NCBI GenBank assembly: GCA_965277805.1
Contig: OZ255842.1
Coordinates: forward strand, 3,520,001 to 3,584,000
Reading direction: 5' to 3'
DNA: 64,000 nucleotides
Origin: Candidatus Lustribacter sp.
GTDB lineage: Bacteria > Vulcanimicrobiota > Vulcanimicrobiia > Vulcanimicrobiales > Vulcanimicrobiaceae
Under the pieces are notes generated by a model, which saw only the letters and a list, made by a program, of their open reading frames with translations, was not told the DNA's origin and did no database searches. Shown piece by piece: positions 1 to 59,691 of this stretch. Each line of letters starts with the position of its first letter. Position 1 is the stretch's first letter. The translations under genes and the position numbers were made by a program.

Positions 1-2
1 CG

Positions 3-392
3 CGGGCTACAGCGATCGCGGCGGCTGCGGTGCTGGTGACGTCCGGTGCCGTATCGCGTCTGGCCCCGCATGACGAGATCGCCGGCCGCGGACAAGAGCA
101 GGGGCACAAGAAGGCACCACTGCGACCCGAGATCGCCGACCGCGGACAAGAGCAGCACCACAAGAACGCACCACTGCGACCCGAGATCGCCGACCGCGGA
201 CAAGAGCAGCACCACAAGAACGCACCACTGCGACCCGAGATCGCCGACCGCGGACAAGAGCAGCACCACAAGAACGCACCACTGCGACCCGAGATCGCCG
301 ACCGCGGACAAGAGCAGCACCACAAGAACGCACCACTGCGACCCGAGATCGCCGACCGCGGACAAGAGCAGCACCACAAGAACCGCGCCTAG
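3..392 (+). CDS. Repeat-rich small peptide, 5'-truncated by the window edge: hydrophobic signal-like stretch followed by about 6 copies of EIADRGQEQHHKNAPLRP; candidate precursor peptide
   Basis: Frame is open from position 3 (RATAIAAAAVLVTSGAVSRLAPHD) to TAG at 390-392; lies immediately upstream of a P4H/ATP-grasp gene. Confidence 0.6.
   Translation, partial: RATAIAAAAVLVTSGAVSRLAPHDEIAGRGQEQGHKKAPLRPEIADRGQEQHHKNAPLRPEIADRGQEQHHKNAPLRPEIADRGQEQHHKNAPLRPEIADRGQEQHHKNAPLRPEIADRGQEQHHKNRA
75..383 (+). repeat. Tandem repeat, 54-bp unit, about 5.7 copies (1 diverged, 4 identical, 1 truncated)
   Basis: Unit gagatcgccgaccgcggacaagagcagcaccacaagaacgcaccactgcgaccc read directly. Confidence 0.97.
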
Positions 393-405
393 CGCCGCCT
401 CTGCC

Positions 406-1869
406 CTGGACGTTCTCTCGGATAAGCCGCGCGTCTATCGTGCGGCGAAGTTTTGTTCGCCGCACGAATGTGCGCGGCTCATCGCCGTGGCGGCCAAGTA
501 TGTGCGCGAAGCCCCCGATCGGCGCGAGGATGAGACCGGCGAGTCGTGCGAGTTGCCGCTCGATGTCGATCCGCTCGTCGCAGAGATCTTCGCGCGTGTC
601 GAGCGCGTGCTCGGCATCGCGAATGCGTGCGGCGGCACGCTGCGCTACCGCCGCTACGAGCCGGGTACGTCGCACCCCGCTCACCTGGATGCGTACGAGA
701 TCAACGGCGCGCATCTCCTCGTTACGGCGATGCTGAACCTGACCGACACCGAGGACGGCGGCGAAACGGTCTTCCCCGACGCGGTCAAAGGCGCCCTTGC
801 GCTCCCCGCGCGCGCCGGCGAGCTCCTACTGTGGTTCACTCACCGTCCCGACGGTTCGCTTGACCCGACCTCGAAGCACGCCGCCCTCGCGGTGCGCCGC
901 GGAGAGAAGCTGACGCTGACGCAGTTTGTGTACGGGCCGCTCGCTGCAGCCGCGCTCGCCTACGATCCCCACCGCCAGCGCTTCGTCCTGCCGCCTTCCG
1001 CCTCCGGATGGTTCTGCTGCATTGACGACGGTTGTCCCGAAGCGTCAATTGAAACGCTGCGAGCCGCGTGCGCTGCGCGCGACGTCCCCTTCAAGGTCAT
1101 CGAAGCGTCGCAGTTCGATTGGGATCCCGCCCGGCGTCTCGCGCCCGGCGATATGCTCTTCCGCCCGGCCATCTCGATTGCCGCGGAGCGCGTGGAACGC
1201 TTCCTCCACGCCCCCGGCGTCTCCACATTCTACGACGATGGGCCCGACACGGTTTTCTTCACCCCGAACACGACGCCGCTCTTACTCGAGCGCGCTGGTC
1301 TGCCCGTCCCACGCACCGTGTACTGCTCGTCTGGCGACCGCGCACTGTTGCGCGCGTACGTCTCGCATCTCGGCGGCTTCCCAGTGGTCGTGAAATTCGA
1401 AGGCGGTTCGGGCGGCGTCGGCGTTCTGCGTGCTGACTCAGAGCCGGCGCTCTTCTCGCTGATCGACTTCGCGCTCGCGCTCGGCCGCCATCCGTTGCTC
1501 GCGGCGTACATACCGGACGCGGAACACTGGCGCGTCGTCGTCGTCGGCGACCGGCCGATCGCCGCATATCGCAACCCGCCAGACCCCGGCGACTTTCGGA
1601 CGTCAGGCACACAGCGTGCCGATGAGGTAACCGCAACGCCGCGTGAGCCGCTGGCGACGCTCGGGGTACGAGCCGTCCGCGCCGTGCGCAGCGCATTCGG
1701 CGGCGTCGACATTCTCCTGCACCCGAGCGGTCGCGCCTACGTGCTCGAGGTGAACGTTCCGTGTTACTTTCCGCACGCGCAGCTCGTTGGGGGCGTGGAC
1801 GTCGCTGGAGCGATGGTGGCGTACCTCGTCGAGCGCGCGAGCCAGTTGCGGATTATGTCACCACCGTAG
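406..1869 (+). CDS. 2OG-Fe(II) oxygenase (prolyl 4-hydroxylase-like) fused to RimK-like ATP-grasp ligase; start uncertain (CTG 406, or ATG 70/GTG 46 if the repeat is translated in this frame)
   Basis: P4H-like motifs VLSDKPRV..FCSPHEC, HLD, GGETVFP, HAALAVRRGEK; ATP-grasp motifs FPVVVKFEGGSGGVGV, FGGVDIL, YVLEVN. Confidence 0.85.
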   Translation: MDVLSDKPRVYRAAKFCSPHECARLIAVAAKYVREAPDRREDETGESCELPLDVDPLVAEIFARVERVLGIANACGGTLRYRRYEPGTSHPAHLDAYEINGAHLLVTAMLNLTDTEDGGETVFPDAVKGALALPARAGELLLWFTHRPDGSLDPTSKHAALAVRRGEKLTLTQFVYGPLAAAALAYDPHRQRFVLPPSASGWFCCIDDGCPEASIETLRAACAARDVPFKVIEASQFDWDPARRLAPGDMLFRPAISIAAERVERFLHAPGVSTFYDDGPDTVFFTPNTTPLLLERAGLPVPRTVYCSSGDRALLRAYVSHLGGFPVVVKFEGGSGGVGVLRADSEPALFSLIDFALALGRHPLLAAYIPDAEHWRVVVVGDRPIAAYRNPPDPGDFRTSGTQRADEVTATPREPLATLGVRAVRAVRSAFGGVDILLHPSGRAYVLEVNVPCYFPHAQLVGGVDVAGAMVAYLVERASQLRIMSPP

Positions 1870-2698: not shown

Positions 2699-3151
2699 CT
2701 AGAACGGAATCTCGTCTTCAAGTGCGGCGTCTTCGTCGAAGCCGGCGGACGCCGATGCACCGGTACGCGCGGGTGCGGCTGAGCGTTCGTACGGTTCGCT
2801 GACGTCGCCGTTCATGCTGCGGCCTCCGCCGCCGGCACGATCGAGCATCTGCATCGTGTTGCACACGACTTCCGTTGCTTTGCGCTTTTCGCCGTCTTTC
2901 GTTTCATAAGAACGAATCGACAGACGGCCCTCGACCAGGCACGACATGCCCTTCTTCAGATACGTGTTGCACGTTTCTGCGAGCTTGTCCCAAGCGACGA
3001 TGTCGATGAAATCCGTCTCTTCTTGCTGCTTCGAGCGGCGATTGACCGCGAGCGTGAATTTGGTGACAGCTGCGCCGGAGCCGACGTAGCGGATCTCCGG
3101 GTCGCGGGTCAGATTTCCGACCAAGATAATTTTGTTATAGGATCCAGCGAT
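2699..3151 (-). CDS. ssb: Single-stranded DNA-binding protein, apparent non-canonical ATC start
   Basis: (M)AGSYNKIILVGNLTRDPE...EDEIPF; GAGGT lies 8 nt before ATC; in-frame TAA three codons upstream. Confidence 0.95.
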   Translation of the reverse strand: MAGSYNKIILVGNLTRDPEIRYVGSGAAVTKFTLAVNRRSKQQEETDFIDIVAWDKLAETCNTYLKKGMSCLVEGRLSIRSYETKDGEKRKATEVVCNTMQMLDRAGGGGRSMNGDVSEPYERSAAPARTGASASAGFDEDAALEDEIPF

Positions 3152-3256: not shown

Positions 3257-3553
3257 CTACTTTTCCAATTTAATGAACAGGGCGCGCATCACGTCTTCGT
3301 TGAGACGCATCTGGCGTTCGAGCTCTTTCGAAGCGACGGCTTCGCTCTTGAACTTCATCACGACGTAGTAGCCTTCGCGAACATCGTCGATCTCATAGGC
3401 CAGGCGGCGCTTGCCCAGCTTCTCGATCTCGCCGACAACTTCACCGCCCTGGCCCTTGATGGACTCGGCGATGGCCTCGACGCGGGCGTCCATGTCGGTC
3501 TCTTCGAGCGCGGGACGCAGAATATAGGTGACTTCGTAGTCGATTGCGGGCAC
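3257..3553 (-). CDS. rpsF: 30S ribosomal protein S6
   Basis: YEVTYILRP...LGKRRLAYEI...EGYYVVM; upstream of ssb. Confidence 0.97.
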   Translation of the reverse strand: MPAIDYEVTYILRPALEETDMDARVEAIAESIKGQGGEVVGEIEKLGKRRLAYEIDDVREGYYVVMKFKSEAVASKELERQMRLNEDVMRALFIKLEK

Positions 3554-5173: not shown

Positions 5174-7339
5174 TTAGTTGGCGCTGACTCGGGCTTCGCG
5201 TTTGGTGACGCGGTAGACGGCACGTACTTCTTTGAGGTGTTCGAGCTTGTAGAGCAGTTTCTGCAAGTGCTCGATGTTCGTGATTTGCGCGGTTATCGAG
5301 ATGTTCGCCGCCTCTTTTTTCACGCGCGCGTTGACCGAGGAAACCGGGGTCTTCAACTCGGCGCAGACGCCCATCACGTCTTGCAGTAGGCCGGAGCGGT
5401 CATTGGCTTCGATCTCGATGTCGACCGCGTGCTGGATGTGGGTGACGTCGGCCCACGTTGCTTCGAGGATACGTTCGGGTGCGGCGTTCATGTACGCCAC
5501 GTTCGGACAGTCCGCGCGATGGACCGAAACGCCGCGGCCGATCGTGACGAAGCCCATGATCGGGTCGCCCGGGACGGGCGAACAACACTTCGAGAGCCGC
5601 ACGAGCACGTCGTCGACGCCGGCGATGCGGATGCCCGATGCGTTGCGCGCTACACGACGCGTCGAGGTCGGGCGCGGCAGCGTCTGGATGTCGACGACGT
5701 TGTCGGTCTTGAGTTCTTCGCGCAGGCGTTTGGCAACCGAGGCCGCGTTGGCGTCGCCAAAGCCGATCGCCGCGTAGAGGTCGTTGGCCGTGGCGTAGTT
5801 CAGCTTGCCGGCAATTTTCTCGATCACGTCGCCGCGCGCGGAGTCGATGCGCAAGCCGAGATGGACGAGCTCGCTCTCGAGCATCTCTTGCCCGAGCACC
5901 GCGTTCTCTTCTTTCTTCTCTTTACGGAACCACTGTTTGATCTTGTGCTTCGCGCCGGACGTCTTGACGATCGAGAGCCAATCCAGCGACGGGCGCGCGC
6001 TCGACTTGTTGACGAGCACCTCGACGATGTCGCCGTTCTTCAATCCGAAGTCGAGCGGCACGATCTTGCCGTTGACCTTCGCGCCCACGCAATGATTCCC
6101 GACGCCGGAGTGCACTTGGTAGGCGAAGTCGAGCGGCGTCGCGCTTGCAGGCAGCGAGAACACATCGCCCTTGGGCGAGAAGATGAACACCTGCGACTCG
6201 AACAAGTCGAGCTTGAGGTTCTCCATGAACATCCGCGAGTCGCGCATGTCGTTCTGCCACTCGAGCAGCGAACGCAGCCAGGTGAGCTTCTGCTCGAAGG
6301 TGTCGCCCTTGGCGCCTTCTTTGTATCGCCAGTGTGCGGCGATGCCGTACTCGCTCGTGCGGTGCATCTCGAGCGTGCGGATTTGCACTTCGAGCGGATC
6401 GCCGCCCGGCCCGACGACCGTCGTGTGCAAAGACTGGTACATGTTGGGCTTGGGCATCGCGATGTAATCTTTGAAGCGCCCCGGCAGCGGCTTCCAGATC
6501 GAGTGCACGACGCCCAACGCGCCGTAACAATCCTTGACCGAATCGACGATGATGCGGACGGCCGTCAAATCGTAGATGGTCGAGAAGTCGCGGCCCTTCT
6601 GCATCTTCTTGTGAATCGAGTAGAAGTGCTTGGGACGGCCGTTGACTTCCGCATGCAGACCGATCGCTTCGAACTGGCCCTTGAGCTCGTCGAGCACGCG
6701 TTGCACGGCGGCTTCGCGTTCGCCGCGTTTCTTCGCGACGCGTTCGGCGATATCGTGATACGCCGCCGGATCGAGGTAGCGCAGCGAGAGATCTTCGAGA
6801 TCCCACTTCATGCGCCAAATGCCCAAGCGATGCGCGATCGGGGCGTAGATCTCGATCGTCTCTTGGGCGATCGTCTGCTGCTTCGCCGGCGGGAGCGATC
6901 CCAGCGTGCGCATGTTGTGCAGCCGGTCGGCGAGCTTGATGATGATGACGCGGATGTCCTTAGCCATCGCCAGGAACATCTTGCGCAAGTTCTCGACCTG
7001 CGCGTCTTCCTTCGTCTGATACGGAATGCGCGTCAGCTTGGTGACGCCGTCGACGAGCGAGGCGATCTCCTCACCGAAGCGTTCGCCGACTTCTTCGCTC
7101 GTGATGACCGTGTCTTCGACGACGTCGTGCAGCAGCGCGGCGGCGATCGTCTGGCGGTCCATTTCGAGATCGGCCAGGATCGCGGCAACGGCCAGCGGGT
7201 GCTCGATGTACGATTCGCCCGAGGCCCGGCGCTGCTCGCGGTGCGCGCCCTCGGCAACAGCATATACGCTCTCGAGCCACGCGGGGTCGAGGGAGGGGTC
7301 ATAACGGCGAACATTAGCAACGAGATCCGCGATCGTCAT
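5174..7339 (-). CDS. relA: Bifunctional (p)ppGpp synthetase/hydrolase (Rel/RSH)
   Basis: HD motif LLHDVVED, IKLADRLHNMRTL, KPNMYQSLHTTV, TGS and ACT domains. Confidence 0.97.
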   Translation of the reverse strand: MTIADLVANVRRYDPSLDPAWLESVYAVAEGAHREQRRASGESYIEHPLAVAAILADLEMDRQTIAAALLHDVVEDTVITSEEVGERFGEEIASLVDGVTKLTRIPYQTKEDAQVENLRKMFLAMAKDIRVIIIKLADRLHNMRTLGSLPPAKQQTIAQETIEIYAPIAHRLGIWRMKWDLEDLSLRYLDPAAYHDIAERVAKKRGEREAAVQRVLDELKGQFEAIGLHAEVNGRPKHFYSIHKKMQKGRDFSTIYDLTAVRIIVDSVKDCYGALGVVHSIWKPLPGRFKDYIAMPKPNMYQSLHTTVVGPGGDPLEVQIRTLEMHRTSEYGIAAHWRYKEGAKGDTFEQKLTWLRSLLEWQNDMRDSRMFMENLKLDLFESQVFIFSPKGDVFSLPASATPLDFAYQVHSGVGNHCVGAKVNGKIVPLDFGLKNGDIVEVLVNKSSARPSLDWLSIVKTSGAKHKIKQWFRKEKKEENAVLGQEMLESELVHLGLRIDSARGDVIEKIAGKLNYATANDLYAAIGFGDANAASVAKRLREELKTDNVVDIQTLPRPTSTRRVARNASGIRIAGVDDVLVRLSKCCSPVPGDPIMGFVTIGRGVSVHRADCPNVAYMNAAPERILEATWADVTHIQHAVDIEIEANDRSGLLQDVMGVCAELKTPVSSVNARVKKEAANISITAQITNIEHLQKLLYKLEHLKEVRAVYRVTKREARVSAN

Positions 7340-59256: not shown

Positions 59257-59691
59257 GTGCAGGATACCAAGGGCGTCGATGCAGGACTCCTGCAGTCGCG
59301 GTACCGGCTGACCAAGCAGCGCGCGGCAATTTTGCGTGCCCTGGAAGACGGGCGGCACCTCAGCGCCGAGGAGATCCTCGAGCGCGTACGGGCGCAATTG
59401 TCCGGCGTCAGTCTGGGAACGATCTACCGCACGCTCGATATTCTCCGCAGCATCGGACTCGTGCAGATCTTCTCCCACGCCGGCGCCGCCGCCAAATACG
59501 AAGCGGCGCTCGAGAAGCATCACCACCTGGTGTGCACGCAGTGCGGCGAGGTGATCAACGTGAGCGTCAACGAGGCGCTCGCGCTCTCACAAACGATCGC
59601 GCAAGAACACGGCTTCAACAACGTCGATTGCGCGCTGGTGGTGACCGGACGCTGCGCGCGCTGTTCCGACACTCCCCCCGGCGCGAACTAG
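59257..59691 (+). CDS. Fur-family transcriptional regulator
   Basis: RLTKQR, HLSAEE, TIYRTL, HHHLVCTQCG, CxxC. Confidence 0.9.
   Translation: MQDTKGVDAGLLQSRYRLTKQRAAILRALEDGRHLSAEEILERVRAQLSGVSLGTIYRTLDILRSIGLVQIFSHAGAAAKYEAALEKHHHLVCTQCGEVINVSVNEALALSQTIAQEHGFNNVDCALVVTGRCARCSDTPPGAN

Follow-up and report, generated by a model that had tools for sequence, protein, structure and literature searches.

The first part of a 64,000-nucleotide stretch of the Candidatus Lustribacter sp. genome (assembly GCA_965277805.1, contig OZ255842.1, positions 3,520,001 to 3,584,000; G000:C1:3520001-3584000), hereafter the window, holds two adjacent genes on the plus strand. The window lies inside a single 5.53-Mb contig. 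One gene encodes a protein that ends in six near-identical 18-amino acid (aa) units, and the other a fusion of a prolyl 4-hydroxylase (P4H)-type 2-oxoglutarate (2OG) oxygenase with a RimK-like ATP-grasp ligase. The two occur together in bacteria of many phyla, and the one feature shared by the tails of the first protein, here called the partner, is the motif Glu-x-x-x-Lys in multiple copies. Comparative evidence supports well the view that the partner is a repeat precursor modified by the adjacent enzyme. By a narrow balance we favor a reaction in which the ATP-grasp half would join the Glu at position i to the Lys at i+4, the oxygenase would hydroxylate the resulting ring, and the tail would be exported.

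The enzyme and its conserved partner

The enzyme occupies window positions 406 to 1869 and is 487 aa long when read from a CTG codon at 406, where homology to its relatives begins in frame 1, 13 nucleotides (nt) past the TAG stop codon of the partner open reading frame (ORF; 390-392). Pfam assigns the N-terminal half to PF13640 2OG-FeII_Oxy_3 (30.9 bits, cut-off 27; core at 646-933) and the C-terminal half to PF08443 RimK ATP-grasp (54.2 bits, cut-off 21; 1282-1827). Both the domain fusion and its 13-nt distance from the repeat ORF had been proposed in an earlier, sequence-only reading and hold. The solved structures nearest to the oxygenase half by sequence are prolyl 4-hydroxylases (E 1.3e-17). 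Its putative Fe/2OG ligands His93 (682-684), Asp95 (688-690), His158 (877-879) and Lys168 (907-909) align with the HxD/H/K residues of Chlamydomonas P4H (2jig) and are invariant or nearly so in the family. For the ligase half, sequence comparison with solved structures gives RimK first (4iwx, E 4.2e-30), then LysX/ArgX, PsnB (8.6e-11) and an MvdD-like chain (0.0088); Foldseek likewise returns RimK, ArgX, LysX and PsnB (PsnB at E 1.3e-15). With a confident AlphaFold2 (AF2) model (mean predicted local distance difference test score, pLDDT, 91.1), invariant HxD/H/K residues, and protein or peptide ligases as all of its nearest solved ATP-grasp relatives, the enzyme looks competent.

Enzymes of this type are numerous. 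There are 265 matches at E<=0.001 among 8000 scored candidates of a 90%-clustered set, 1.84 billion 50%-clusters yield 513 representatives at E<=1e-30, and the source annotations are limited to '2OG-Fe(II) oxygenase', 'ATP-grasp domain-containing protein' and 'hypothetical'. A genome scan gave 265 confirmed places, and the locus counts given here cover the best 80 of these 265. The loci belong to Myxococcota, Hydrogenedentota, Planctomycetota, Chloroflexota, Proteobacteria, metagenome-assembled genomes labelled Bacillota, and others. The enzyme is a fusion in 47 loci, has its domains in swapped order in one (P0019 and others exemplify this order), and is an ATP-grasp protein alone in 32. A profile of the N-terminal part of the partner finds a homologue in 51 of the 80 loci, comprising 33 of the 47 with fused enzymes, the single swapped locus, and 17 of the 32 with the ligase alone. 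Because all three arrangements (either order of the fusion, and the ligase by itself) come with the same type of partner, the two activities are, on this comparative evidence, functionally linked. The partner gene mostly lies 15-300 nt from the enzyme gene, convergent and downstream in 29 loci and upstream on the same strand in 17. Eleven of the remaining 29 loci have an adjacent ORF rich in Glu-x-x-x-Lys that lacks the N-terminal domain, one of them (L060) cut by a contig end; L002, L004 and L005 have large ORFs close to their enzymes, with 4-6 E...K among 24-40 Lys, which were left out of the partner count. Repeat peptides are thus not missing beside homologous enzymes, an absence that the sequence-only reading had named as the observation that would undo its proposal.

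When all ORFs of the 80 loci were clustered, no protease, transporter, regulator or other gene emerged as a third conserved member. Both genes are maintained in a second lineage, represented by P0001 (enzyme, 92% identical) and P0122 (partner, 87% identical), and a metagenome scan for close enzyme relatives returned only five loci, at 30-33% identity. The module is single-copy in the host genome.

Three planctomycete loci with ligase-only enzymes (L051, L062 and L068) have adjacent Gln/Glu/Lys-rich proteins with 15-23 copies of Glu-x-x-x-Lys, no N-terminal domain and no hydrophobic segment. These probably represent a leaderless, cytoplasmic form of the system, to judge from their composition.

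The Glu-x-x-x-Lys motif and the predicted reaction

Partner tails are 40-400 aa long, and their sequence is unconserved apart from Glu-x-x-x-Lys. The pattern E...K occurs 416 times in 41 tails (8775 aa) versus 82.0 +/- 8.2 times in composition-preserving shuffles, and the enrichment is specific for spacing and direction (observed versus expected, E..K 127 vs 84; E....K 83 vs 83; K...E 126 vs 84). Viewed from the lysines, Glu is found at -4 for 455 of 836 tail Lys (43 tails) at a background Glu frequency of 10.5%, compared with 488 of 5319 Lys in other ORFs of the same loci, where the resulting 9.2% is an overestimate that includes some missed partners. The position after the Glu is Gln in 24% and Glu in 16% of the tail motifs. 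In three Nannocystis partners every Lys has its Glu (15/15, 14/14 and 14/14), and in the window partner 6 of 7 do. Here the motif reads EQGHK in the first unit (96-110) and EQHHK in the other five (150-164, 204-218, 258-272, 312-326 and 366-380). Partners show the same motif profile whether their enzyme is fused or ligase-only, and this profile does not include Pro, which is present in the unit of the window partner and rare in most tails (1-4 Pro in many). As Pro is not conserved in the motif, the prolyl hydroxylation suggested by the earlier name of the enzyme is unlikely as the conserved reaction of the family. Of 42 partner genes, 17 contain tandem repeats, and in 16 of these the period is a multiple of three; judging from these sequences, the tails expand by in-frame tandem duplication.

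As in graspetide precursors, a gene adjacent to the ligase thus combines a Glu acceptor with a Lys donor at fixed spacing. The sequence-only reading had taken the repeats for cores modified by the fusion; the conserved pairing (51 plus 11 of 80 loci) and the acid/amine motif bear out its genetic side, with the modification itself predicted. ATP-grasp enzymes activate a carboxylate and join it to an amine or hydroxyl. In the reaction proposed here, the first gene would supply a docking or leader domain resembling PqqD and other RREs (recognition elements of RiPPs, peptides that ribosomes synthesize and that are then modified post-translationally), a hydrophobic signal or anchor, which in most relatives resembles a twin-arginine translocation (Tat) signal, and one Glu-x-x-x-Lys per repeat. 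The ATP-grasp half would turn the side chain of the Glu into an activated acyl phosphate for attack by the Lys four residues downstream, so that a small isopeptide (lactam) ring between Glu(i) and Lys(i+4) would form once in each repeat. The P4H-like Fe/2OG half would next hydroxylate a residue of the ring, and the modified tail would finally cross the membrane. An intramolecular isopeptide at each motif best explains one exact, directional Glu/Lys spacing repeated beside an ATP-grasp ligase. Since partners with the motif are shared by ligase-only loci (17 of 32), ligation would be the core step and hydroxylation an added one. The hydroxylated residue is probably the Glu, the Lys or the Gln/Glu position, the only ones conserved in the motif, and by analogy with the corallotide system described below it is probably the cross-linked Lys. 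Modification would precede export, because the enzyme has no signal, ATP is cytoplasmic, and the tail lies beyond the Tat-like or anchor segment and sometimes carries a PEP-CTERM end.

Several observations weigh against this account. No partner-like ORF lies near the enzyme in 18 of the 80 loci. The combination E(i)-K(i+4) is also favored as a salt bridge in charged helices, and part of the enrichment could be structural. The ligase half is closer to RimK than to known graspetide synthetases, both in the structure comparison (4.2e-30 for RimK, 8.6e-11 for PsnB) and against the graspetide synthetase model TIGR04187, where it scores 26.7 bits against a cut-off of 350. In the window itself, the enzyme has no canonical start codon where homologues have an ATG 10-14 codons before a conserved Pro-Arg, and the partner carries one Arg where a twin-Arg would be expected. 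Finally, the module was not found in 7 genomes of the same genus and 33 more distant relatives, which gave only weak ATP-grasp matches; nothing therefore ties it to the core biology of the host.

The kinship of the ligase with RimK bears on what is joined to what. RimK adds free glutamate, and the partner could be the substrate of an enzyme that works in the manner of RimK or TTLL ligases: the motif Glu or the C-terminus would receive a free amino acid such as glutamate, or an amine, or else the Lys would be acylated by a free acid, with Glu-x-x-x-Lys acting as a recognition element rather than as a pair to be cross-linked. The nearest enzymes by sequence and fold, RimK and LysX/ArgX, do join a free amino acid to a carboxylate of a protein, and many tails end 1-3 residues past the last motif. 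At the same time, an acid and an amine at one exact spacing and in one direction, involving up to 100% of the Lys, are the signature of two reacting partners. S6 and LysW end in Glu-rich sequences, whereas the C-terminal residues differ from tail to tail (A, Y, P, G, Q, R, K), and the ligase half also falls short of the RimK family models (TIGR00768, 80.4 vs 143.4 bits; NF007764, 61.6 vs 331 bits). The corallotide precedent, as reported in the main text of PMC13097080, is itself an i/i+4 lactam. Ligation of a free molecule is in our judgment unlikely, with enough in its favor to be a serious contender.

The window copy, its putative leader domain and its surroundings

The intramolecular lactam is proposed for the family as a whole, and the window copy has peculiarities of its own. 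The ATG start codon of the partner gene lies 252 nt ahead of the window (genome 3519749; L001 11748) and is preceded by the putative ribosome-binding site GGAGGA; the 3' part of the gene spans window positions 1 to 392. The product of 214 aa consists of an N-terminal domain (N-domain) of about 85 aa, a hydrophobic stretch at residues 87-102 (window 6-53), and the repeats. What had looked like a hydrophobic, signal-like N-terminus in the truncated gene is consequently an internal segment. Looking upstream, as the sequence-only reading had advised, yielded the true start at window -252; a conserved regulator, protease or transporter was not among the neighbours.

Tandem Repeats Finder reports one array at window 74-383, with a period of 54 nt, 5.7 copies, 98% matches and a score of 585, in agreement with the earlier estimate of about six copies. 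In frame 3 it encodes six 18-aa units (75-128, 129-182, 183-236, 237-290, 291-344 and 345-389), of which the first deviates at three residues and the last is shortened to 15 aa. Short-read contigs from three runs, probably of the source sample, are identical to both flanks of the array and break inside it. Contigs of the repeat unit are several-fold deeper than the flanks (54.8/44 vs 8.7/10.8 in run X1), a rough sign only of several copies. The N-domain of P0122, a 150-aa protein from an independent metagenome, is 87% identical to that of the window partner and is followed by three units in the same frame with a similar end; each unit has several substitutions, yet E-Q-x-x-K is retained. Since P0122 carries in-frame units with the same motif and type of end, the 54-nt array is genuine, and its copy number differs between close relatives while frame and motif are kept. 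The earlier concern that the repeat might collapse on read mapping is thereby allayed as regards the reality of the array, supported by excess depth and by P0122, and stands for the number six, as no short-read contig bridges the array to confirm it independently.

The start of the enzyme is less straightforward. Its frame is open from position 40, contains ATG, GTG or TTG codons only at 46, 70 and 487, and has none across the stretch where homologues, which are 470-530 aa long, begin (10-14, sometimes 22, codons ahead of the conserved Pro-Arg). Starting at 487 would cost the first 27 residues, which are modeled at pLDDT 93-97, and starting at 46 or 70 would add a 112-aa extension, translated from the repeats in a second frame, that is seen in no homologue. 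Translation from the ATG at 70 through the repeats was considered and judged unlikely, given the missing extension in homologues and the codon-position GC content of the array, which is [.83,.40,.74] in the partner frame, [.40,.74,.82] in the enzyme frame and about [.70,.50,.78] in real genes; this pattern matches the partner frame and not that of the enzyme. Short-read contigs are identical to the assembly at window 354-900 and in the upstream flank, which makes an assembly indel unlikely. The gene for the 92%-identical enzyme P0001 has likewise been called from the equivalent internal GTG. The CTG at 406, at a Leu position where some homologues have TTG or ATG, is the likeliest start, possibly coupled to the partner stop 13 nt upstream.

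These features raise the question of whether the module is real in the family and decaying or silent here, with its start codon and twin-arginine lost and the near-perfect array a recent neutral expansion. The gap in start codons between 70 and 487, the confident part of the fold that a start at 487 would delete, the internal GTG call in P0001, the single Arg of the partner, and the lack of the module in the 40 relatives searched are all consistent with decay. Opposing it, neither reading frame is interrupted over its 214 or 487 codons, the catalytic residues are retained, P0001 and P0122 show both genes maintained in a second lineage, and CTG 406 could serve as a start. We therefore give decay a small but real chance. 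Short of decay, the missing canonical enzyme start and the single Arg suggest that the window copy may be poorly expressed or not exported by Tat.

The end of the N-domain is strongly conserved across partners (…LD-x-LAD-x-GLL…R-x-x-PP), and Pfam PqqD (PF05402) matches 25 of 37 members of the partner family at E<=1, the best at 4.3e-8. The window partner itself has no PqqD match at E<=0.1, only MarR_2 and HTH_47 at 1e-3. The AF2 model of the domain has two strands and three helices in the order beta-beta-helix-helix-helix, with pLDDT >90 for residues 11-70; the winged helix of PqqD/RRE domains has three strands and three helices. Its best fold match in the PDB is the lasso-peptide RRE TbiB1 (probability 0.98, target template-modeling score 0.59, but E 0.054), and the RREs of LynD, TruD, McbB, PqqD and PbtF are among the further matches, mixed with winged-helix regulators and none of them at E<=0.001. 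An Atlas look-up points to PqqD clusters at 0.86, a lead only, and three predictions of a complex between the enzyme and the N-terminal part of the partner disagree (run scores 0.01, 0.64 and 0.01). The best explanation of these models and matches is a PqqD/RRE-like winged helix that would serve as a built-in leader or docking domain. A further match to the N-domain profile at window 59257-59691 was weak and set aside as mere winged-helix likeness; the ORF is presumably a Fur-like regulator by its sequence pattern.

PqqD-like domains normally bind the leader of a separate precursor, and they are normally found on enzymes or as stand-alone chaperones. The partner, whose N-domain resembles them in its modeled fold, might accordingly be an adaptor or chaperone of the RRE kind, anchored in the membrane, that would present some other, unseen peptide to the enzyme. 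Such a role is quite improbable, as the loci hold no other small conserved ORF, the sole conserved feature of the tails is a reactive acid/amine motif in many copies, and in eleven loci the motif-rich neighbour is wholly without an RRE domain.

For a partner that is the substrate, as we favor, export of the tail is plausible. A twin-Arg, a hydrophobic stretch and often AxA directly follow the N-domain in 35 of the 51 family partners, one tail (L042) of the four with PEP-CTERM-like ends passes TIGR02595 at 18.4 bits (cut-off 16), and the host genome encodes TatC. The hydrophobic segment of the window partner aligns with this Tat-like 'SRR + hydrophobic + AxA' segment of relatives, but with its one Arg and internal position it does not qualify as a Tat signal; the RR segments of relatives likewise always stand behind the N-domain, and Pfam TAT_signal matches 3 of 37 members of the partner family. 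Tat carries folded or cofactor-loaded proteins and would fit a cross-linked cargo. Two myxococcal partners (L023 716-1606 and L030 4604-5989) have no hydrophobic segment behind the N-domain, which is instead preceded by a classical-looking signal peptide, and their arrangement suggests that the entire protein, including the leader domain, may be exported. Another myxococcal locus (L081 6982-9183) has two tandem partner genes, each encoding an N-domain, a twin-Arg segment and a tail that runs into a non-repetitive C-terminal domain, and it also holds one ligase-only gene and, where the contig ends, another copy of the enzyme.

Taken together, these sequences could define a widespread and so far undescribed kind of ribosomal protein modification in which RimK-clade ligases, often fused to P4H-like oxygenases, would add dozens of lactam staples between Glu(i) and Lys(i+4), along with hydroxyls, to secreted repeat proteins that carry their own RRE-like leader before a Tat-type signal, with cross-linking in the cytoplasm and Tat export to the surface. 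We advance this generalization tentatively, at somewhat less than an even chance.

Downstream of the module, genes for a single-strand-binding protein (2699-3124) and ribosomal protein S6 (3257-3553) were recognized on the minus strand from their translations. With RimK as the best sequence match of the ligase half and rpsF only 1.4 kb away, the ATP-grasp domain might be a RimK that glutamylates S6. RimK extends the acidic tail of Escherichia coli S6, whereas the local S6 ends ...KLEK without such a tail. The enzyme also stays below the RimK family model (80.4 vs 143.4 bits), and no S6 gene is conserved near it in the 80 other loci, so the proximity is in our judgment a coincidence and S6 a very improbable target. 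Hardly credible, finally, is the release of the repeats as Phr-like secreted signalling peptides, which the sequence-only reading had offered as an alternative: the units are repeated and follow a hydrophobic segment, but IA|DRGQE is not conserved even in the 87%-identical P0122 (D to G), only Glu-x-x-x-Lys is kept, and neither a protease nor a regulator, Rap-like or otherwise, is conserved in the neighbourhood.

Upstream of the module and divergent from it, on the minus strand, a Pfam scan of the ORFs finds genes for a patatin-like protein, an FAD-dependent oxidoreductase (PF12831) and a 327-aa membrane protein without a Pfam match (L001 6830-8827, 8728-10692 and 10539-11522); none is conserved in the other loci, and the module does not include them. 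The stretch 1870-2700, which separates the module from the ssb and rpsF genes, has a GC content of 0.52-0.55, compared with 0.64 for the genome and 0.66-0.68 for the module, and may by this measure be a small foreign insertion. A 177-aa ORF on the minus strand at 2049-2582, with Cys pairs, an HH...H pattern and weak, sub-threshold Pfam matches, is presumably an HNH-type nuclease. Further along, a 721-aa ORF on the minus strand (5174-7339) has the look of an ordinary RelA/SpoT-type (p)ppGpp synthetase/hydrolase by its translation.

Relation to known systems

The multi-core graspetides plesiocin (made by PsnB) and thuringinin and the omega-amides of the microviridin type share with the window family an ATP-grasp gene beside a precursor with repeated cores, the cross-linking itself being predicted for the latter. 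Known graspetides join Thr, Ser or Lys with Asp or Glu in hairpin-like rings and have a short linear leader recognized by the synthetase, whereas in the window family each repeat would hold a single minimal ring, the tails can reach about 400 aa, the leader domain is folded, and signals for secretion are present. RimK and LysX/ArgX, the closest kin of the ligase half in sequence and structure, resemble it in acting on a protein substrate, as predicted for the window family; they join a free amino acid to the C-terminal carboxylate of S6 or LysW, whereas the window partner has no acidic C-terminus and the enzyme remains outside the RimK models. The oxygenase half matches the prolyl 4-hydroxylases of Chlamydomonas, Bacillus anthracis and human (C-P4H) in fold and in Fe/2OG-binding residues. 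It differs from them in that Pro is not conserved in the family motif, and the residue hydroxylated is probably not Pro. The N-domain has a modeled fold similar to that of PqqD-type RREs (TbiB1, PqqD and the N-domain of LynD), and Pfam PqqD matches most members of the partner family; unlike these RREs, it sits in the presumed substrate ahead of a signal segment and not on an enzyme or chaperone. Full-text literature searches found no description of an RRE-like domain inside a substrate ahead of a signal segment, nor of a system of repeat partner and fusion enzyme, and a look-up of the terms 2OG and oxygenase in Makarova et al. 2022 (PMC8939145) returned no mention.

An i/i+4 Glu-Lys lactam is the link used by chemists to staple helices, and if the proposed reaction is right, the system would be its natural counterpart. 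As a compact two-gene system with a minimal five-residue tag, E-x-x-x-K, it is potentially useful for enzymatic peptide stapling. The same chemistry would point to a class of proteins, on the surface or in the matrix of bacteria, that owe their properties to hidden cross-links.

Among described systems corallotide comes closest, a group 15 graspetide restricted to Corallococcus, with the system CorA/CorB/CorC(/CorD) (PMC13097080, ACS Chem Biol 2026), and its pairing of an ATP-grasp enzyme with a PF13640 oxygenase on a repeat precursor means that the window module is not as far outside known classes as the sequence-only reading supposed. According to the main text of that report, the precursor of about 22 kDa has an N-terminal domain that binds the enzymes and five KxxxD repeats; CorB (TIGR04187) is an ATP-grasp enzyme that forms Lys-Asp (i, i+4) isopeptides, and CorC (PF13640) hydroxylates the Lys delta-carbon after cross-linking, forms a complex with CorB and activates it. 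This main text makes no mention of fused enzymes, RimK or signal peptides. Set against this description, the window family differs in several respects. Its motif is reversed and Glu-based, Glu-x-x-x-Lys in place of KxxxD. Its ligase is RimK-like and not of the TIGR04187 type (26.7 vs 350 bits), a separation from CorB and CorC that follows their published description, and it is fused to the oxygenase in either order or stands alone, whereas the corallotide enzymes are separate. The beta-lactamase-like CorD is not conserved in its loci, its leader is PqqD/RRE-like where that of corallotide is all-helical, a Tat-like signal is present in most members and a PEP-CTERM end in some, and it is spread over many phyla rather than one genus. 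In outline the two systems would nevertheless work alike. Both have a large repeat precursor with a conserved N-terminal domain (enzyme binding is reported for corallotide and predicted here), an acid and a Lys four residues apart, and an ATP-grasp enzyme acting together with a PF13640-type oxygenase, as a complex in corallotide and as a fusion in the window family. If the chemistry is as proposed, the logic of corallotide, an isopeptide ring followed by hydroxylation, would be no oddity of a single genus but one case of a broader strategy of cross-linked repeat proteins, extended here by another ligase clade, a reversed motif, enzyme fusions, an RRE-fold leader within the substrate, and built-in signals for secretion or surface anchoring.

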